A stretch of DNA of 61,409 nucleotides, counting the filler, from Bacteriovoracaceae bacterium (GTDB taxonomy: Bacteria; Bdellovibrionota; Bacteriovoracia; Bacteriovoracales; Bacteriovoracaceae): the NCBI GenBank assembly GCA_018649885.1. It is 6 parts of 6 records of this genome, joined end to end, with 100 filler letters (N's around TTAATTAATTAA, not from the genome) between each part and the next. Parts side by side here need not be neighbours in the genome. Positions count along the whole stretch, not along the records: positions 30,446 to 35,389 come from JABIHA010000047.1; 5 more parts are not named here. The stretch is one strand, 5' to 3'. The position numbers and the translations under genes were made by a program. Position 1 is the first letter of the stretch, and the number at the start of each line of letters is the position of its first letter. Below the pieces are notes generated by a model, which was not told the DNA's origin, ran no database searches, and saw only the letters and a list, made by a program, of their open reading frames with translations. Shown one piece after another: positions 1 to 56,619 of this stretch.

Positions 1-181
1 AAAATGAAACCCTGAACTCCAAATTCAGGGTTGAGCCTAGAGCACTGAAACGTCGAACAAGAGGGACATTTAGCCTTTTGCTAATTCCAAGAAATAGGTA
101 TAAATCCTCAAACCAAGTGGCTTAAAGCAGTAGCATTCGTGGGTGATACTTTTTACATCAAATAGGTACCAGCTTAACAAA

Positions 182-30445: not shown

Positions 30446-30456
30446 CAGTACGCGCC

Positions 30457-30819
30457 ATGATAACGGCACATGCACTGAACAGTTCGTCGCGGGTTCGCCA
30501 CGGCTTTTTCACCCGCCAGGGGGGCGTCAGCCAGGGCTTGTACGGGTCTCTCAATTGCGGGTTTGGGTCCGGTGACAACCCCGACCATGTCGCCGCCAAC
30601 CGGGCCAACGCGCAGGCGCGCCTGGCCGGGGACAAAACCGGGGATAGCGAACTGGTGAGCGTCTATCAGGTCCATTCGCCGACCGTGGTCCATGTGAATG
30701 AGCCTTGGGCTCCCGGTGATGCGCCCCAGGCCGACGCCATGGTCACGGCCCGCCCGGGGGTCGCGTTGGGGGTGCTGACCGCCGATTGTGCGCCGGTGCT
30801 TTTTGCCGATGCCAATGCC
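30457..30819 (+). CDS. pgeF: 5' half of PgeF/YfiH (laccase-domain/purine nucleoside phosphorylase family), GC-rich and foreign to the rest of the contig
   Basis: HGFFTRQGGVS..SLNCG..D, QVHS, ADAMVT..PGVALGVLTADCAPVLFAD; the expected HAGW motif is absent. Confidence 0.85.
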
Positions 30820-31051
30820 AATGCGCCCGATGCCAATGCCAATGAGACCTATGCCAATGCCTATGCCGATGAGACCGACGCCAATGCCTATACGCCCGAT
30901 GCCAATGCCGATGAGACCTATGCCAATGCCCATGCGTCCGATGCCAATGATCGAAATGAATAGTTCTATAAATAATACGGTCCTTGAAAAGGCCTTACGA
31001 TTAGAACCGTTAAAGGTGCCGCTAATTTACGATTCCACTCAAATTAAGTGA
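30806..31051 (+). CDS. 3' end of a host protein containing a Pro-Met/Arg-Pro-Met repeat
   Basis: Repeat variation is mostly synonymous in this frame (Pro CCA/CCG/CCT/CCC; Arg CGC/AGA/CGT); the frame continues into AT-rich sequence and a hairpin follows at 31065-31092. Confidence 0.7.
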   Translation, partial: PMPMPMRPMPMPMRPMPMPMPMRPTPMPIRPMPMPMRPMPMPMRPMPMIEMNSSINNTVLEKALRLEPLKVPLIYDSTQIK

Positions 31052-31115
31052 TTTAAGCTGTTATCAAGAGTAGGGATGTGACCCTGCTCTTGTTAAAAAA
31101 TAGAAGGGCATTTTT

Positions 31116-34100
31116 ATGAATTTAAGATTTATTTTAATTTCATCACTTTTTATACTTTCGGGCCTGACCAGCTTAGTTTATGAAGGGCTTTGGATAAGGG
31201 CCTTATCTCTTGGGGTTGGATCTACTTCAGCTTCGATTAGTATTGTGCTTTCAATATTTTTCTTTGGTTTATCTATTGGAAGTTACTTTGTGGGAAAAAT
31301 CGCACATAAAATAAATAACCCGCTAAAACTTTATGCAATGCTCGAGGGTGGTATTGGCCTTTATAGTGGGGCCTTAATTTATCTCCTGCTAAAGTTTCAA
31401 ACAATTATTTCTTGGTTGCCTTTTGGAGGAAGCTTAGAAGGTGTCGCTCATGTTTTAAAATTCCTAGTAGTTTTTGGATTATTAATAGCTCCTACAATTG
31501 CGATGGGAGCTAGTTTACCATTACTAATAAAAATCTTTGTTAAAGATGATAAAAAAGTTGGTCGTTATGTCAGTCTTTTATATGGAATTAATACCATCGG
31601 AGGAGCTTTAGGAGCTTTTCTTTTCGGGTTTTGGCTATTACCAAGCTTTGGGGTAACAGGCACTAATCATGCAATGGTTGTTCTCAATATACTTGTTGCT
31701 ATTACTGGCCTATTGATGGCCAGAAGCTCTGGCCCAATTTTTATAAGTCTAAATTTTAAAGAGCTATTTGTTAAGGAAAATACTATTATTAAAACTCCTT
31801 TAAACTTACAAAACTCAGTACTACTAGCATTATGTTTTTTAACGGGATTTACATCTATTTCCAGTGAAGTCGTTTGGAATAAGTATCTAGGAATATTTTT
31901 TGGGACAAATATTTTTGGCCTTGGAATAATACTGACGATTTATTTAGTTGGTATTGCACTAGGGTCTTTCTTGCTTTCACTTTTTATACATAAAATTAAA
32001 AATCTTAAGTCGTTTTTTGCAGGAATGCTTATTGTGACATGTATAACAATGTCATTCGTTGGACAATTTCTAAATCAACTACCGATCGTTGCAAATATAA
32101 TTGGGTACTATATCCCGGCCTTTAGTTTATTTAGTATTAAAACTTTTTTAAGTTTTCTCGTACTATTCGTACCTACATCACTTCTCGGTTCACTCCTGCC
32201 TCTGGCAATACATATAATTGGCCAAAAAGCAGAAGAAGCACCTTTTGTTGCAGCAAAAGCGTATTCATTAAATACAATCGGAGCCATTTTAGGTTCAGGA
32301 TTAGCTGGACTGGTACTACTACCAAGTATTGGTTCATCAGCGACAATTCAAGTTTCTGTAGGAATTCTTATTCTTGGAAGCCTTTACTACTGCTATATCT
32401 CAATTCAAAATAAGACGTTGGTGGTATTTTCTTCGATAACCTTAACTCTTGTGGGAACCTTTTTAATTACACATTCAAGTATTGATTTTAGAAATATTAT
32501 TCGATCAGCTTATATCCAAAACAGTAACACTTCACTTGGAGTTTCCCAGCTATGGGAAGCCTTGAATACCAAAAATGAAGATTTTAAGCTTTTGGTTGAA
32601 GGAAAGACAGCTGTTATAAGTCTGAGTCATGACATTCAAGATGGGGAAAACAAGCAAAATACTCTTAGATTAAAAACAAATGGTTTAAATGAGTCGTATT
32701 ATGATCTAAATCGACTCAACTTGATTCCCAAGTATGAAGGTTTGCTAGCGCTTGCTCCTTACATCTTTAAAAAAGATGTTCAAAAAGCATTTGTCGTAGG
32801 CCTTGGAGGAGGTTACACCGTTGATCTCTTAACAAGTCTCGATATTCCCAATGTGTACGTTTCCGAACTTGAACAGGGGGTACTCGAAGCGGCTAACTAT
32901 ATTTACAAAGGGAAAAACCCAATTTTAAGTCGACCAAATTTGCATCTAGAGGTAGAGGATGCTCGATTTAGTATGGTTTCCAAAAAATATGGAAAGTTTG
33001 ATATCATTATCTCTCAGCCCTCTCACTCTTGGCTTTCTGGGGTTGCAAATCTTTTTACCAAAGAATATTTCGAAGTAGTGAAGTCTAATCTCAACCAGGG
33101 AGGAATCTTTTCTCAATGGATGAATCTTTATAATACCGATTCAGTAGTTTTAGATTCTATCTTACAAACTTTTTACTCGGTGTTCCCGCATGGTGTGATC
33201 CTTTCTGATGTTGGCGATGCTCAAATGATAATGATTGGTTCTATGAAACCACTAGAAATCAATTTAGATAAATTAGAGGCCGTTTTAGCAAATAAGAAGA
33301 TTAAGAACTCTTTAGAGTTCCTCAACCTTTACAAGAAAGAAGACGTGCTGGGCCACTTTTGGTCAACACGAGAAAAAATGCTTACTCGCCCAAAGCAAAA
33401 AATTAATACAGATGAGAATGCTTATGCCGAAGTATACCAAAGCAAATTGTTTTACAGAAATGATGACACTAGTGCTACGGATGAATATTTAAAAAAGAAC
33501 TATGATGTGGAGCTTACAGCTAAACTTTTTAAATCAGATTCAACTGATAAAATGAAAAAGTTAATAGAAGTTCTTTTATCTCAGCAAAAGTACGAAAAGC
33601 TTTACAGTTTGTTACCAGAATATGAAAACATGATTAAAAATGATGTTAAGAGCTATATTGCCCACGCAAAGGTTTTGACTGAGGTGAATCTATATCGGAG
33701 TGCTACAAATTACCTTGAAAAGGCAATAATGCTTAATCCCTCAAAAGAAGTTCTTAATGACCTGATGGCAACATTAATTTCTTCAAAGAATCCATTAAAA
33801 GCAATTTCTTATGCAAGTAAGTATTCAAACGTCATGGATTCAATGGGAGAATGTTACCTGGCCGAAGCTTATCTTCAAGGAAAAATGAAAGAAAAATATA
33901 CAAATATTGTTTCAAAAATGATCACGAACACTGAAAATTATAGAGATAAATGTGGATCACAATATAATGTGATTATGGGACAGTATTATTATTCAATAAA
34001 TAAATTCAAGCAAGCATTACCATACCTAGAATCTCACTATGCTTTATTCCAAGAAGATATTGGCAACGTTGAACGCTTGGTGGTTAGCTATATTAAAACA

Positions 34101-34247
34101 GGGCAATCAAATACTGCCTATGAATATTCCAGCTACCTTGCAACCCTAGCTCAAACCTGGAATGGCCAAATTGAAGGACTGATCCCTTACTTCAAAGAAC
34201 TTGGCCATGTTGCAGATGCAATGGTGCTCGAAAGATTGAAATATTAG
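31116..34247 (+). CDS. Multi-TM membrane domain fused to spermidine-synthase-like SAM-binding domain, with TPR-like tail
   Basis: SGLTSLVYE, LYGINTIGG, VVGLGGGYT, EDAR, FDIIISQPSHSWLSGVANLFTKEYF. Confidence 0.9.
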   Translation: MNLRFILISSLFILSGLTSLVYEGLWIRALSLGVGSTSASISIVLSIFFFGLSIGSYFVGKIAHKINNPLKLYAMLEGGIGLYSGALIYLLLKFQTIISWLPFGGSLEGVAHVLKFLVVFGLLIAPTIAMGASLPLLIKIFVKDDKKVGRYVSLLYGINTIGGALGAFLFGFWLLPSFGVTGTNHAMVVLNILVAITGLLMARSSGPIFISLNFKELFVKENTIIKTPLNLQNSVLLALCFLTGFTSISSEVVWNKYLGIFFGTNIFGLGIILTIYLVGIALGSFLLSLFIHKIKNLKSFFAGMLIVTCITMSFVGQFLNQLPIVANIIGYYIPAFSLFSIKTFLSFLVLFVPTSLLGSLLPLAIHIIGQKAEEAPFVAAKAYSLNTIGAILGSGLAGLVLLPSIGSSATIQVSVGILILGSLYYCYISIQNKTLVVFSSITLTLVGTFLITHSSIDFRNIIRSAYIQNSNTSLGVSQLWEALNTKNEDFKLLVEGKTAVISLSHDIQDGENKQNTLRLKTNGLNESYYDLNRLNLIPKYEGLLALAPYIFKKDVQKAFVVGLGGGYTVDLLTSLDIPNVYVSELEQGVLEAANYIYKGKNPILSRPNLHLEVEDARFSMVSKKYGKFDIIISQPSHSWLSGVANLFTKEYFEVVKSNLNQGGIFSQWMNLYNTDSVVLDSILQTFYSVFPHGVILSDVGDAQMIMIGSMKPLEINLDKLEAVLANKKIKNSLEFLNLYKKEDVLGHFWSTREKMLTRPKQKINTDENAYAEVYQSKLFYRNDDTSATDEYLKKNYDVELTAKLFKSDSTDKMKKLIEVLLSQQKYEKLYSLLPEYENMIKNDVKSYIAHAKVLTEVNLYRSATNYLEKAIMLNPSKEVLNDLMATLISSKNPLKAISYASKYSNVMDSMGECYLAEAYLQGKMKEKYTNIVSKMITNTENYRDKCGSQYNVIMGQYYYSINKFKQALPYLESHYALFQEDIGNVERLVVSYIKTGQSNTAYEYSSYLATLAQTWNGQIEGLIPYFKELGHVADAMVLERLKY

Positions 34248-34519
34248 GTACGTCCACATCTTTGCAGAAAGGCCAATAAACTGAAACCGAACTGAACAGT
34301 ACACTGTTAACCGCTAACATGTTAACAGTTAACGGTGCACCGCTAAGCTTAAAAAACCCTAAACCCCCTCAACACTCTTCAGAAGCCTCCAAATCAAACC
34401 CCCAACTCTATCCCCAAGAAGCGCCACCTCACTCCCCGGACAATAAATCTCCAATATAGTCCGAGACTCCCTAAGAGAAGCATAAGCAATCCGATAAAAC
34501 CTCCTCTTCTCCTTCCTCC

Positions 34520-34639
34520 GAAAAAGGTGAAAAAGGAAAAAGGTGCCAAAGAAAAAGGTGCAGAAAAAGGTGCCAGCAGAAAAGGAAAAAGGTGCCAGGG
34601 AAAAAGGCAGGGAAAAAGGTGCCAGGGAAAAAGGTGCCA
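34520..34639 (+). repeat. Array of 10 truncated 5' prefixes (GAAAAAGG...) of the RAYT element left end
   Basis: Units of 9,7,15,12,16,6,15,12,15,13 nt, each starting GAAAA(A)G. Confidence 0.9.
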
Positions 34640-35389
34640 GAAAAAGGTGCCAGGGTCAGTACGGGATGCGTTGCAATTCTGATTTTATTTTAGTCAGGCC
34701 TAACTATGAAAAGGACAATATAGGGCATTGTGATAACTCATACTCATGGCCCGTAAATTACTAATTCGAACAGATCAATTTCCATACCATGTCACTACCA
34801 GATCAAGAAATAAAGATTGGTATGACTTACCAATGAATGATGTTTGGGAAATTTACATGAAAGCATTTGAGAAAGCACTTTCAAAGCACCCGGTAAAAAT
34901 ACACGCCTTTGTCCTAATGAGTAATCATTATCATTTACTCTTGATGACAATAGGTCAAAATATTGATCAATTTATGAGGGAGTTTAATCAAAGCGTAAGT
35001 TTATCGATACGCTTGAAAACCAAAAGAATTAATCAAATTTTTGGAAGTAGATATAGGTGGTCTATTGTGCAAAATGAAAATTATCTCAACAATATCTATC
35101 GCTATATTTTTCGAAATCCCGTTGAGGCAGGCATATGCCGGAACTGTGAAGATTACCGTTATAGCAGTATCTCTTCTTTTCCATGGCCCTTAACAGAATT
35201 AGTTGAAATTAATACCCAAGAATTCAAGAACTGGATTAACTCGATAAGTGATGAGAACGAGTATTTCTACATAAAGAAAGGGTTACAAAAGAAAATATTC
35301 TCACCTCCAAAAAACCCCTCAACAAAAAAGAAGATTCAATTGCCCAGCTTTAACCAACGCAGCCCGTACTGACCCTGGCACCTTTTTTC
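34640..35389 (+). mobile_element. RAYT/Y1 HUH transposase element with 33-bp terminal inverted repeats
   Basis: AAAAAGGTGCCAGGGTCAGTACGGG[A/C]TGCGTTG at 34641-34673 and inverted at 35355-35387 (32/33 identical); left end repeated at 56540. Confidence 0.85.
34746..35372 (+). CDS. REP-associated tyrosine transposase (RAYT, Y1_Tnp family)
   Basis: PYHVTTR, AFVLMSNHYHLLL (HUH motif), YIFRNPVEAG (catalytic Tyr), YRYSS. Confidence 0.93.
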   Translation: MARKLLIRTDQFPYHVTTRSRNKDWYDLPMNDVWEIYMKAFEKALSKHPVKIHAFVLMSNHYHLLLMTIGQNIDQFMREFNQSVSLSIRLKTKRINQIFGSRYRWSIVQNENYLNNIYRYIFRNPVEAGICRNCEDYRYSSISSFPWPLTELVEINTQEFKNWINSISDENEYFYIKKGLQKKIFSPPKNPSTKKKIQLPSFNQRSPY

Positions 35390-35489: not shown

Positions 35490-36720
35490 TAAGCTTTTTA
35501 AGAACTTTTTTAATTTTCCCTTCATCACCGACACTAAAAAGGCCCGCGAGGTATTTTATGGGAAGTCTGCACTTATCAATTGAAGTAAAAAAGTGCTCAC
35601 TAGTTGTATCGTAAGCGTTGTCACCCATTTTACCCATAATAGGTAGTAGTGGTGGAACATAGAAAAGCATGGGAGATGTTCTATATTCTGCGTGAAGAGG
35701 AAGAGCTAGGCCCCACTCTTTAACCCACTTAAAAATCGGTGATTTTTGAGCTGATTCAATAATTGAATGGTGTACACCATTTTTTGTAGCCGCTTCAATT
35801 ACTGCTGGATCATTAGGATCCAAAATCGCATCCATTTGAGCATCAATTAGTTGATCATCTTCAGAGTGAACTAGTGTTTCAATTTTATCGGCATCGTAGA
35901 GAAGAACCCCAATATAACGAATTCGACCAACACACGAGTGCATACATGCTGGAGCCTCTCCAACTTCAAGTCGCGGATAACAAAGAAGACATTTCTCTGA
36001 TTTACCTGCAGACCAGTTGTAGTAGGTTTTTTTGTAAGGACAAGCTGTTACACACATCCTCCAAGCACGACATTTTTCTTGATTGATCAGGACAACTCCG
36101 TCCTCACCTCTTTTATAAATCGCACCCGATGGGCATGAAGCCACACAAGCAGGATTGAGACAGTGATTACAAATCCTTGGCAGATACATCATCACCATTT
36201 TTTCTAAGCTATCAAGAGACTCTCTTTCTTCTTTTTCAAGAACATCATAGTTGGGATCATTTTTGGCGTAGAGCTCAGAGCCACTTAAATCATCATCCCA
36301 GTTTGGTCCAGAGCTGACTTCCATTTTTTCACCAGTGATCATTGATACTGGTCTTGCCACTGGTTGATCATCTCCCTCAGGGGAATCAATCAAATCAGAA
36401 TAGGTGTAATTCCAAGGATGGTAATAATCCTCAAGAACGGGAAGTTTGGGATTATGGAAAATATTTTTTAATCCTCTGAACTTACCAGCACCTTTAAGAC
36501 TAACTTTATTGCCTTTTTTCTCCCAGCCACCTCGGTAGTCATCTTGATCTTCCCAGCGGTGTGGATAACCAGTTCCTGGTTTTGTTTCCACATTATTCCA
36601 CCACATATACTCAGCACCTTTTCTATCGGTCCAGAGATTTTTACAGGCAACAGAGCAGGTGTGACATCCAATACACTTATCGAGATGAAAAACCATTGCA
36701 ATTTGAGACCTAACATTCAT
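35490..36720 (-). CDS. narH: Respiratory nitrate reductase beta subunit, 3' truncated
   Basis: LDKCIGCHTCSVACK, YMWWNNVETKPG, CNHCLNPACVASCPSGA, CRAWRMCVTACPYKK. Confidence 0.97.
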
Positions 36721-36741
36721 ATTTATAATCCTTCGCTTAAT

Positions 36742-39700
36742 CTACCATTCAACACTATCGAGTTTTCTAACCAAAATAAAAGTATCTCTATTGACTCCAG
36801 TAGGACCCCAATAGTTAAAGTGGTAAGTAAATTGACCATACCCACCAAGCATTAAGTTTGGTTTAAGGTGAACTCTAGTTAGTGAATTGTTCATCCCTGC
36901 ACGTTTGTTTCCACGTATTGGAGATTTAGGCACTGAGTAAGTTCTCTCAGTAGCGTGGTAAACAAAACACATTCCAGGAGGAATTCTGTAACTGACATTG
37001 GCCCTAGTCACGACAACACCGTTGTCATTAAAGACTTCAACATACTCATTGTCTTTGAGTCCTAACTTGTCAGCGTCTTCTGGAGAGATCCAAAATGGTT
37101 CAGCCCCTCTAGAGAGAGTCAACATTCTATGGGTGTCTCCATAGGTTGAGTGAATATGCCACTTACCGTGTGGGGTAAGATAGTTCAGCTTAAGACAATT
37201 TCCTTCAGCTTCTGTGACTCTTAAATCCCCATAGGCTTCTGGTGTTGGAGATGGCTTGTAAGTTGGAAGATGTTCTCCAAATCCGATATAACCTTCGTGA
37301 TCAAGGTAAAGACTTTGCCTTCCAGTAATTGTTCTCCAAGGAACCATTCTATCAACGTTGTAAGAGAAAGCTGTGTAGGCCCTTCCCTCATCAATCAGCC
37401 CTGACCACATCGCTGCATTGTGAAGTCTAGTTGGCTTTGCTTGAATATCTTTAAAGCACAGTCTCTTGCCTCTGTTTTGCTCAGCAAGATCAGTTAGTTG
37501 AAGACCCGTCTTCTTCTCCATGGTTTGATAGCCTCTGTAAGCTAGCTCTCCATTGGTGACTGAGGCCAAATTAAGTATGGCATTACAAGCGTGCATGTCT
37601 TCTTTTAAAGAAGGATATTTAACGCCATCAACCTCACAAGTTGGACCTTCTGCAACCATTTTGTCGTAGAAGTCTTCAATAGGATAACTAACTCCGTGAG
37701 CTCCAAGGCCCCCCTTTCTAGGATTGGGTCCAAAGCTACAAAACTTATCATAAATTTTTGTGTAATCTCTTTCCACGACCACCAAATTGTACATAGTCTT
37801 GCCAGGAATCGCTTCACACTCACCTTTCTTCCAATCTTTAATTGAAGGTTGTGCAAGCTCTGCTGGTGTATCGTGCATAAGAGGTAGAGCTACAATATCT
37901 TTTACAGGCTCAGTAAAATGATTTTTAGACATTTCCTGAGTTGCGTAGGCAATATCTCTAAAAATATTCCAGTCAGACTTTGATTCCCAAACAGGAGGAA
38001 TCGCTGGTGAAAGTGGGTGGATAAAAGTGTGCATATCCGTTGTATTGAGATCTGCCTTTTCATACCAAGAGGCAGTTGGCAGAACAATATCTGAATACAG
38101 AGCACTAGTGTCCATTCTGAAGTTGACATCAATAATCAAATCCATTTTTCCAGTAGGCGCTTTCTCATACCACTTAATTTCTTCGACATGCTCTTTAGCT
38201 ACATCATCGTGGGCAATAGCATTAGTATGTGTGCCCAAGTAATGCTTTAAGAAATACTCGTGTCCTTTAGAGCTGGTTCCAATGGCATTCCCTCTCCAAA
38301 TATACCAAACCCTTGGAAAACTATCGGGAGAATCTATATCTTCAATAGCTGGATTAACTTCGCCACTTTTGATTTTATCCAGTACGTATTTTTTAATGTC
38401 TTCATCGTTAGCAGCTCCACTATCTTGAGCCTCTTTACACAGATCAAGAGGGTTCTGTGTATATTGAGGGTAGAAGGGAAGCCAACCACACCTTACGGCT
38501 TTGGCATTCAAGTCAGCAGTATGACCTTTAGAAATTGGGTGCTGCTCAGGAGAAGCATTAATTTCATTATAAGGAGTATCGTATCTCCACTGATCCGTGT
38601 GCATATAGTGCCATGATGGAGCATTTTGAAGTCTTACTGGTCCTTGCCAATCTTTTGCAAAAGCAATGGCACCCCAAGGTTCTGCTGGAGCTAGTTTTTC
38701 TTGCCCAACATAGTGATTGAGTCCACCACCATTTTTACCAACACAACCAGTAAAAATAAGTGCATTAATTGCGGCCCTATAGATTAAATTATTGTGGTAC
38801 CAGTGATCAATACCGGCACCGATGATTACGCTACACTTACCTTCGGTAAACTTAGCAGTTCTACACCAGTCATTGGCGAACTGAATGATTGTGCTTCTAT
38901 CTATTCCAGTGAACCTTTCTTGCCATGCTGGCGTGTAACTATGCTCAGTATCATCATATGAATCTGGATAGTCTCCACCAAGACCTCTATTGACACCGTA
39001 TTGGGCCATTAGAAGATCGTATACTGTTGTATAGGTTTTCTTCCCTTCAGCTGTTTCAATATGCTTTACAGGAACGCCTCTTGCAAAATGCTTTTCTGTA
39101 GCAAATTCCACAAAATCCACATTTAAGACTTCATCATTTGAGTCTTTAAGAGTAAGCACTGGCTTAATATCTGAGCCATCAATACTATCTTTAAGAAGAA
39201 GATTCCACTGGCCTTGTTTTTCTTGCCAGCGGTGACCCATGGAGCCCATTGGCATTTTTAGAGCGCCTGACTCATCTTGCATTAGAAATTTCCAATCACC
39301 GTTTTCTTCGCCTTTGTATTTATCAAGTAAGCCTGCCCTTAAAAATTTTCCAGGAACAAGTTTGCCACTCTGATTTTCAATTTCCACGAGAAATGGATTA
39401 TCTGAATATTTCTTTTGGTAATCTAAAAAGTATTCTGTTGGATTCTTGTAGTGGGACTCAGTTAAAATAACATGATTAACCGCCATCCAAAATGCTCCAT
39501 CTTGACCTTGATGAAGTGGAACCCACTGGTCAGCAAATTTCGCAACTTGTGAAAAGTCAGGGGATAGAACAACAACCTTAGTACCATTGATTTTTGCTTC
39601 TGGAATAAAGTGGCAATCAGGAGTTCTAGTCATATTGAGGTTGGCGCCCATAATGGCCACAAACTTTGAATTGTACCAATCAGCTGATTCGCCTACATCT

Positions 39701-40356
39701 GTTTGCTCTCCCCAAGTCTCTGGAGATGCTGGAGGTAAGTCACAATACCAATCATAAAATGAAAGACACACACCACCCATTAATTGAAGAAACCTCGCCC
39801 CTGCCGCATAAGAAATTTGTGACATGGCAGGTATTGGAGAAAACCCAGTAACTCTATCGGGTCCGTATTTTTTAATTGTTCTAATATTGGCAGCGGCCAT
39901 AATTTCTAGGACTTGTTTCCAATTGGCCCTTCTAAATCCGCCCTTTCCTCTAGCTCTTTGGTAACGCGTTCTAAGAGCGTCGTCATTTTGAATATAATCC
40001 CAAGCCTCTACAGGATTAGCACATTTTGCTTTTGCCTCTTCCCAGATATCGAGAAGCGCGCCTCTAAAATAAGGATATTTAATTCTAATAGGACTATATA
40101 AATACCAACTAAAAGAGATACCTCTTTGGCACCCTCTCGGCTCATAGGGAGGAATATTTTTATCAAAAATAGGATAGTCAGTGGCCTGAAGTTCCCAAGT
40201 CACAATCCCATCTTTCACGCACACATTCCATGAGCATGAACCTGTACAGTTAACCCCGTGTGTAGAGCGCACGATTTTGTCGTGTTGAAAACGGTTTCTG
40301 TAAAATTCTTCCCACTGTCTTGTTTTGGGTGAAACTATATCGTTAATCCAACTCAT
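36742..40356 (-). CDS. narG: Respiratory nitrate reductase alpha subunit (Mo-bisPGD), no Tat signal
   Basis: [64 protein letters not shown]. Confidence 0.97.
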
Positions 40357-40367
40357 TACTTATTCTC

Positions 40368-41183
40368 CTAAACTGGTCTTCTTGTTTTCTTTCTTCTATC
40401 ACGCCAAATCAGATCAACTACACCTAGAGCGAGCAGCAGTCCTACCACTCCTAAGAAAATGAATTTTTTGGTATAGCCAAGAGACGAAATCTTTTCGCCC
40501 TCTCGATCTGACTTAAATAGAAATGATTTTAATTGGTAGACTTCGTCTTCTGTTAAGGCTTTCCCTCTATAGACTTCATCCATGATAGGAAAAGAGATTC
40601 TAGTTAGAACCTTACTGACGCCCTTGTCATTATAACTTGAATAAGTGTGAGTCAGATCTGGACCGAGAAGTCCTCCTCCCAAAAAGCCAGCACTTCCCGC
40701 AGAGTGACAAGATAGGCAAGCTGGCCCACCTTTTTCAAAAGCAAGCGTTCCTACAAATAGCTGCTCTCCCCTATCGATTTCCCAGGTTTTAGCATTCAAG
40801 GCTGACTTTACCTTTTTAGCTGCGGCTAGTCCCGCTCCGCCATTTTCAATAAAAGATAATAGATCGGCGATTTCATCATCACTATATGTCTGGTCGGGCA
40901 TTTTCTTTTTGCGGTACTTATTAAAGAGTTTGATAGCGTATTCATCACCCTCTCCAATAACGGCTTGTGATTCTTTAATAAAACGAATCAGCCACGCCTT
41001 GTCCTTTCTTTTTGAAACACCTTTAAGATCTGGACCCACGTCATCCCCACCACCAACGGTATGGCAGCTAGAACACTTCTTCTCAAAAACCTGAGCTGGA
41101 TCAAATCCAAAGGAGTTAAAACTTACAAGAATTAGTGTAAATACACATAAAAACCATTTACTCTTTTGAAGCATCACAATCAT
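40368..41183 (-). CDS. Membrane-anchored diheme cytochrome c (NarC-like)
   Basis: Signal peptide, CSSCH and CLSCH heme motifs, two GPDL, C-terminal TM helix; ends 11 nt before narG. Confidence 0.88.
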   Translation of the reverse strand: MIVMLQKSKWFLCVFTLILVSFNSFGFDPAQVFEKKCSSCHTVGGGDDVGPDLKGVSKRKDKAWLIRFIKESQAVIGEGDEYAIKLFNKYRKKKMPDQTYSDDEIADLLSFIENGGAGLAAAKKVKSALNAKTWEIDRGEQLFVGTLAFEKGGPACLSCHSAGSAGFLGGGLLGPDLTHTYSSYNDKGVSKVLTRISFPIMDEVYRGKALTEDEVYQLKSFLFKSDREGEKISSLGYTKKFIFLGVVGLLLALGVVDLIWRDRRKKTRRPV

Positions 41184-41260
41184 AACTCCGAAATTTATTG
41201 TACTGTTTGACAATACTTTAATATATTTAACTAAATTTACACGGTTACTAGTCAAACAAG

Positions 41261-55981: not shown

Positions 55982-56212
55982 AATGTCCTCATTTCAAATA
56001 TTTCACCCTTAAAATAAGTAATATCTACTTTCTTTTAAGTAAAGGAAAGTGTCAAAATTTCTAAAGATAAGTGTTTTATGATTAGCAGCTCAAAAGAAAG
56101 ATCTATTAACAGAAAACGATAGGACACCACCTCTTTGTACAACCACCATACAGTGTTTACGGGGGCATTTAAGCATTCGAAGCATTCGTACGAGCATTCG
56201 TACGTGATACTT

Positions 56213-56410: not shown

Positions 56411-56539
56411 GAAAAAGGTGCCAGGGAAAAAGGAAAAAGGGGGAAAAGGAAAAAGAGGGGAAAAAGGTGCCGAAAAACGGAAAAAGGCGGAAAAAGGTGC
56501 CACGGAAAAAGGTGCCAGGGTCAGTACGGGATGCGTTGC
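56411..56539 (+). repeat. Second array of 10 truncated prefixes of the RAYT left end
   Basis: Units of 15,7,10,6,11,12,8,10,15,35 nt, all starting GAAAA; order differs from the 34520 array. Confidence 0.9.
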
Positions 56540-56619
56540 GAAAAAGGTGCCAGGGTCAGTACGGGATGCGTTGCAATTCTGATTTTATTTTAGTCAGGCC
56601 TAACTATGAAAAGGACAAT
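56540..56619 (+). mobile_element. Left end of a second RAYT element copy, cut by the contig end
   Basis: 80/80 nt identical to 34640-34719, with a different upstream flank. Confidence 0.88.

Follow-up and report, generated by a model that had tools for sequence, protein, structure and literature searches.

Polar arrays of truncated end copies beside a TIRtron in a Bacteriovoracaceae genome, a probable footprint of abortive nick-primed copying

How does one end of a mobile element come to stand ten times in a row, in units that all begin at the same base and stop at different ones? The locus that raises this question lies in a window (the whole stretch of DNA analysed, 61,409 nucleotides) made up of six contigs of a metagenome-assembled genome of a Bacteriovoracaceae bacterium (GCA_018649885.1) joined by N spacers; the contig that holds the array is 4,944 nt long (30446-35389). 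We consider it probable that the element's own TIRYT left this array in place as the footprint of nick-primed copying that was repeatedly aborted. The anatomy of the array can be read directly in the DNA, and we infer every chemical step that we attach to it. The features on which the argument turns are collected in Table 1.

Table 1. Element ends, arrays, transposase gene and insertion sequences discussed in the text
Feature	Position	Strand	Details
Polar stutter array	34520..34639	+	10 units of 6-16 nt; common start at 7 nt outward of the left-end GTGC core
Left end: 7-nt tail, GTGC core, TIR	34640..34673	+	arm 34641-34673 complementary to 35355-35387
208-aa HUH/Y1 tyrosine transposase gene, TIRYT-type	34746..35372	+	H61-Y62-H63 and Y120xxxNP intact
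Right TIR and tail (6 A's)	35355..35389	-	contig stops here
Solo end of another TIR family with 2-unit array	56172..56210	+	7-nt tail = last 7 nt of a DDE IS
Second 10-unit array, unlike the first	56411..56539	+	left end of second element copy, contig C67; identical in L198
Left end of second copy	56540..56619	+	80/80 nt identical to 34640-34719; contig stops
IS families in TIR cores	window 1-138; C6, C26, C44, C51, C89, C91, C93, C126 and others		

The first-pass annotation had described ten prefix units followed by the full end, and this parse is exact: 120 nt resolve without remainder into ten units with a common start and a variable stop, five of them pure prefixes and five with altered or extra 3' bases, and the full end runs from 34640. 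The array adjoins one end of a 750-bp element. The same annotation had taken this element for a RAYT element, a classification that we revise, as its sequence marks it as a TIRtron with a TIRYT gene and not as a REP-flanked RAYT. Its two TIRs, of 33 bp each, are 97% complementary; no REP-like hairpin was found in it, and its four end strands fold no better than shuffles (z +0.3 to +1.1). Both ends contain AGGGTCAG, a 7/8 match to GGGGWSAS. The 208-aa protein has PF01797 (Y1_Tnp) as its sole family match (33.7 bits, cut-off 23), scores 71 bits against NCBIfam NF047646, under the cut-off of 80, and carries the motifs SNHYH, YIFRNP and YRYSS. H61, H63, Y120, N124 and P125 are invariant across 79 aligned proteins, with HUH in 119/120 homologues and YxxxNP in 117/120. 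A structure model of the protein (pLDDT 94) has its best fold match in 4er8, the E. coli TnpAREP (E 2.5e-9), and predicts two short C-terminal helices. In another assembly (L196), the right end of this copy runs on into an array of its own, with one full extra 31-nt unit before that contig, too, stops.

A fragmented metagenome bin, a contig that stops at the element and a left end of the same contig that is probably chimeric could all be read as signs of an assembly or library artefact. The array, however, recurs unchanged in another assembly, where L195 and L196 lie on one contig, and sequencing contigs from two studies agree with it as well. In run X2, a contig of 365 nt reaches across 34304-34668 without a single difference; in run X12, which belongs to a different study and year, a 151-nt record matches 34447-34597, made up of unique flank and 78 nt of array, just as perfectly. 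This answers the concern, voiced in the first-pass annotation, that an assembler tangle might lie behind it. The cover in the runs consists of contigs, not raw reads; X2 is possibly the source sample of this genome, and X4 and X8 have no cover over 34406-34570. Arrays also stand at both ends of an element in the middle of contig C118, and a duplication event is present in a single-contig genome (L059, G391). Dense irregular arrays are, furthermore, specific to these element ends: in the 5.45-Mb genome, six loci have a 7-mer that recurs at least eight times at irregular intervals within 130 nt, and five of these are arrays at such ends (C46, C67, C91, C118 and C65, the contig of the array at 34520-34639), the sixth (C99) being a coding Lys-rich repeat. 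The array is confirmed as real genomic DNA of biological origin, and an artefact is highly implausible. The runs also contain other array variants: at 34639-34659, X2 has an extra 15-nt unit form, and at 35374, X8 has right-end units that match part of the C46 array.

The genome holds ten arrays with 77 units in total at the ends of several families, parsed by hand-set anchors; the median unit is 10 nt long (range, 5 to 44 nt), and 48/77 units end in bases off template. Shorter or irregular arrays on C6, C26:102, C51, C63, C67:2906 and C126 lie outside these counts. A second copy of the element, of which 80 and 141 nt are assembled and match the first copy throughout, has different arrays at its left end (C67) and at a right end (C46); the two copies, at separate sites, have common tails and four different arrays. 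Contig C118 encodes another TIRYT, of 47% identity, with 13 and 8 units at the two ends of its element; blastn of the window element against its own genome matched only C65, C46, C67 and this divergent gene. In the region C118:2780-5230, a 375-aa gene, presumably Fic-like, has on one side a solo TIR end that bears an array and on the other the C118 TIRtron, a possible case of cargo capture.

Across all ten arrays, whose tails are unrelated, units start at -6 or -7 from the GT(A/G)C core, and within any one array the start varies by only ~1 nt. In relatives, the 18 unambiguous events start at -7 (eight), -8 (four) and -9 to -12 (six). Array starts have no common dinucleotide, either in this genome or in the relatives. 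The start, mostly 6-8 nt outside the core with a mode of 7, is fixed by distance and not by the sequence found there, so the earlier suggestion that GAAAAAGG defines the cut is not supported; the sequence at the start is different at nearly every end. Unit 3' ends, for their part, have a hot spot just after the core G, where 19/77 units in nine of the ten own-genome arrays and 7/18 in relatives stop.

Junctions bear on how the copies were joined. According to one explanation, the outward strand is nicked or stalled at a fixed site, after which its 3' end realigns further back through microhomology and is extended to the same point again, by telomerase-like realignment or by replication slippage. 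All five pure-prefix junctions of the array at 34520-34639 do show a 1-nt (G) microhomology, an exception in its favor, and plain slippage could have produced the identical neighbouring units found in the C91 and C26 arrays. Over the wider data, however, microhomology is at or below chance: the mean in relatives is 0.37 nt versus 0.61 nt simulated, with 0 nt in 18 of 27 events (these being spread over 26 flank clusters), and the 29 pure junctions of the own genome give 10 observed versus 8.6 expected. Slippage between existing units, moreover, cannot create new lengths. Realignment on the other strand as the main source is thus largely refuted, the slippage explanation as a whole is quite improbable, and microhomology at chance is our reason for preferring nick-primed copying to realignment. 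Given the G matches in this one array and the 40/77 own-genome units that end in G, a base preference or short priming may nonetheless contribute.

Each array was copied from no end but its own. The two left arrays contain no 6-A unit, the right array contains no 5-A unit, and long units bear the diagnostic base of their own end. At L083/L166, in one genus, the last codons and the stop of a host gene form part of a 13-nt unit; a relative that lacks the element has this C-terminus conserved. The C91 tail equals the last 6 nt of the same DDE IS that supplies the tail at 56172, where the rest of that IS is missing; the presence of IS-derived tails in new flanks indicates that a tail can travel. 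Neighbouring units, in addition, have junction bases in common (73 versus 45.0 +/- 5.8 in shuffles, reached in 0/20000 with identical units collapsed), a pooled signal that is strongest in C118L and has a P value of <0.05 in only three of the ten arrays taken singly. As to the order of addition, extra-base junctions match the outer neighbour only in 8 cases, the inner only in 9, both in 18 and neither in 7. Taken together, own-end-only units, host codons and common junction bases point to sequential copying in place and hence to the need for a polymerase step.

This evidence weighs on the proposal that separately cut and variably trimmed ends were ligated serially by the transposase, with no templated synthesis in place. 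Such joining would yield a fixed 5' start, a variable 3' end and no homology, and TnpAREP is described as carrying out strand transfer in vitro, joining oligonucleotides in trans (PMC3333891). Left- and right-end units are never mixed, however; tails are locus specific and include host codons; neighbours have junction bases in common; and all fragments would need to derive from sister copies of one end, all of which makes the proposal very unlikely. The HUH end-joining idea of the first-pass annotation survives in part: a phosphotyrosine end attacked by varied 3'-OHs fits the fixed start and the homology-free joins, but the trimmed separate ends that it invoked do not accord with units of this kind. 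Staggered nicks on both strands, one fixed and one variable, followed by fill-in and end-joining, would give the same products (no microhomology, a fixed start and extra bases at 48/77 junctions), and the genome encodes two Y-family polymerases. Against this, no Ku was found in the 92%-complete genome, and repeated double-strand breaks should leave deletions into the fixed start, which holds to within ~1 nt per array; we regard this route as rather unlikely.

To what extent is the phenomenon shared? TIRYT homologues occur in 203/401 genomes sampled from the phylum. We drew on 133 loci, which are top-ranked matches and not a random sample; 128 were analysed, and 100 of these came through the filters for TIR score, length and flank. 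Under a loose test, the end 7-mer had a further copy upstream at 54/195 ends, three of the own genome included, versus 52/583 control positions. A strict test covered the 185 ends outside the own genome and overlooked one real event or more (L088); it detected exact tandem duplications at 27/185, with the junction between -13 and -3 from the core, and of the 42 squares detected in relatives, two only lay at -110 to -31. Such duplications stand at a minority of ends, one in the single-contig genome of L059 among them, and most ends are clean. No relative has more than three extra copies, and arrays of at least seven units were found only in the own genome, which must therefore be considered extreme. 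The arrays are internal, and 158/185 ends of relatives have no exact duplication; a telomere-like record, as the array had been called, is not what we see.

At orthologous sites, the number of extra units is two in L166, one in L088 and none in L165, and six flank clusters contain ends both with and without duplication, which speaks for change in place; copy-number differences among orthologues could, however, reflect the decay of an old array and not gain. Because both ends of one element bear arrays in C118, L005, L102 and L133, a strict one-fork-direction model was dropped. Targeted and genus-level searches, some of which gave one flank only, returned no clean pre-insertion site. Among the candidates, L169 is a collapsed remnant with both cores, L210 and L221 are internal deletions, and L202 looks like a deletion between two GTAC cores that could stem from hairpin-stimulated slippage; in the genus around L059, sites were too diverged or occupied by other TIR-derived hairpins. 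A related-locus search with a single protein gave one weak locus, a plasmid search gave 14 records at 26-32% identity, and L197 proved to be a 20-mer match due to chance.

When the arrays form is a separate question. They might arise in one burst at insertion, during which the incoming enzyme-bound end cycles through abortive join-and-copy and after which only deletion decay follows; the chemistry would be mostly that of the explanation that we favor, and the timing would differ. The two copies of the element, with their identity over the compared 80 and 141 nt, their common tails and their four different arrays, are what such a burst would leave, and the longest arrays belong to a genome with recent copies. 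Of five intact resident cores that have an IS immediately next to them on the outer side, none shows stutter, so most array formation may coincide with insertion or follow shortly after it. On the other hand, the L083/L166 unit with its host codons and stop stands beside an element resident in five species (72-92% identity), as would be expected if the unit arose once the element was already settled there. A single burst is unlikely on balance.

Our preferred reading, nick-primed copying in place, would proceed as follows. TIRYT would bind the TIR, which might then be single-stranded or paired with the other TIR in a stem, and nick it ~7 nt before the core on the strand that runs 5' to 3' into the element, keeping the nicked 5' end as a phosphotyrosine; we infer the identity of the nicked strand from polarity and the absent microhomology. 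A host polymerase would extend the freed 3'-OH inward while the held strand is displaced. Synthesis would mostly halt early, oftenest right after the core G, where a bound protein might block it or a second cut might end it, and wrong bases may sometimes be added before the halt. The new 3'-OH would then attack the phosphotyrosine and seal in a short duplication, and a nick jitter of 1 to 3 nt would copy bases of the previous junction into the next unit. Since the full end is restored, the cycle of nicking, copying and sealing can repeat. The same cut is probably also the boundary when an end moves.

The surroundings of the array and of its relatives yielded several observations in their own right. 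Most copies of two multi-copy IS families, with 15 and 14 end matches, are inserted within TIR cores. A PF01609 match lies beside ends of the first; PF13006 (IS4 N-terminus) gave no match for this IS, and we therefore call it a DDE IS (PF01609), which may resemble IS4. It appears to duplicate an 11-bp core sequence, as a target-specific IS living in TIRtron ends. Just outside the array, at 34320-34519, the outward strand has an excess of G over C of 0.36-0.75 and of T over A of 0.2-0.4; across 146 flank clusters, near versus far skews are +0.026 versus -0.030 for GC and +0.061 versus +0.010 for TA (P ~2e-4), a comparison confounded by intergenic versus coding make-up. A separate palindromic repeat family, with 13 blast hits on six contigs and high depth in the runs, occupies 34281-34350. 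At the far end of the contig, a high-GC laccase-domain (PF02578) gene fragment at 30446-30810, uncovered in three of four runs and covered in part in the fourth, is probably a chimeric join or contamination. The adjoining repeat at 30805-30950 was rejected as a second stutter array, as it is in-frame low-complexity coding sequence (PMPMR-like in one frame) with no TIR core; it is present in three runs, and its left boundary is probably misassembled. The next contig bears, at 35490-41255, what we take to be genes for a narG/narH-like respiratory nitrate reductase and for a cytochrome c, and since an N spacer intervenes, these are not physically linked to the element.

Element ends and arrays often directly adjoin host stop codons (L088, L165-L168 and L174; C46, C118 and C26), and in one genus, the element occupies the place of a relative's bidirectional terminator. 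At the L059 site (L154, L157, L159, L162 and L135), as at L062 versus L065, L105, L107 and L120, different species have different TIR-derived hairpins or TIRtron families. Such changes of occupant at one intergenic site suggest either replacement or hot spots of insertion.

Among RAYTs, the group to which TIRYT-type genes correspond is the largest (PMC5581495, PMC6006769), and the arrays turn this enzyme group into a sharply testable one. They yield genome-scale predictions of the strand that is cut, of the place (~7 nt outside the core) and the non-sequence-defined nature of the cut site, and of the product. If the nick-primed reading is true, the arrays are in vivo evidence for the BIME amplification step proposed in 2012. 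The predicted sequence-tolerant nick-and-ligate enzyme, of a mere 208 aa, could be of use in DNA joining or molecular recording. A more far-reaching reading, which we offer tentatively and think doubtful, is that TIRYTs constitute a distinct HUH class with a non-hairpin TIR, a sequence-blind ruler cut and guide-free ligation of the held 5' end to nearly any 3'-OH; their units, added in order, one per abortive initiation, would be a chronological in vivo tape, and an end that moves would carry ~7 nt of flank to its new site.

Set beside known systems, the element resembles the TIRtron/TIRYT of Di Nocera, De Gregorio and Rocco (2013; PMC3733652), a RAYT-like HUH/Tyr gene between long TIRs, not REPs, with solo and paired TIR copies elsewhere in genomes, as here. 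The GGGGWSAS motif belongs to only some TIRtron members, other TIRs being unrelated to it (PMC3733652); the cores of our relatives mostly differ from it, as judged by eye without a count. Polar arrays beyond the TIRs, a cut site or a mechanism do not feature in the accessible text of PMC3733652. TIRtron/TIRYT has been linked (PMC6006769) to TnpA-Y1 subclass 2.1 of Quentin et al. (2018; PMC6006769), equivalent to the Group 1 RAYT of Bertels et al. (2017; PMC5581495). According to these sources, that group has the NHYH, YxxxNP and SS motifs, lacks REP hairpins and is widespread with 1-7 divergent matches per genome, as is the case here. It is also described as having W[EQ]/FQ, where the 208-aa protein has RYRWS (consensus RYKWS), and a C-terminal HTH-like extension, whereas the protein has no HTH family match. 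Because neither the motif nor the HTH tail was found, we claim TIRtron membership and leave the subclass unassigned.

IS200/IS605 TnpA (IS608 and ISDra2) has the HUH Y1 fold (E ~1e-5) and 5'-phosphotyrosine chemistry in common with TIRYT, and we know of no end arrays in that family. It acts, unlike the enzyme considered here, on subterminal hairpins with guide-selected cut sites, as described in PMC6006769 and PMC8266576. Telomere- or telomerase-type addition differs from what we see, namely, an internal site with unique flank and microhomology at chance. Polar arrays are not described in the searched literature, of which figures, supplements and subscription reviews could hold some. The word "tandem" is absent from the main texts of PMC6006769 and PMC5581495 and from bioRxiv 10.1101/2021.07.10.451892, "direct repeat" and "telomer" are absent from the main text of Quentin et al. 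(PMC6006769), "TIRYT" and "TIRtron" are scarce as terms, and the accessible part of this literature yielded no biochemical test of TIRYT-type enzymes.

The comparison with the REPtron is the most instructive. Its enzyme has the same fold as the TIRYT, and a nick, 3'-OH extension and Tyr-5'P attack have been proposed for it alike (PMC3333891, Fig. 7B); in the BIME amplification model (Ton-Hoang et al., 2012; PMC3333891), nicking and extension are followed by a second cleavage that frees a 3'-OH for rejoining. The peak after the core G in our arrays could mark that second cut, or a protein block. Its substrate, as given in PMC3333891, is a GTAG-tagged hairpin, and whole BIMEs are added, whereas here the substrate would be a non-hairpin TIR and the added fragments are 5-44 nt long with ragged 3' ends; abundant GTAG/GTGG-tagged hairpin REPs do not accompany this element, and its protein stays under the cut-off of NF047646, a family expected of REPtron enzymes. 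The main departure lies in the cut: known TnpAREP enzymes cut at set dinucleotides, CT (or CA), and transfer by the E. coli TnpAREP depends on a 3' C (PMC8266576), whereas we propose a ruler-type cut here. The type of element and the model chemistry are thus already published, and to these are added here the 7-nt ruler over many tails, the microhomology null, the cis test, inheritance between neighbouring units, IS- and host-derived tails and the 3' hot spot.
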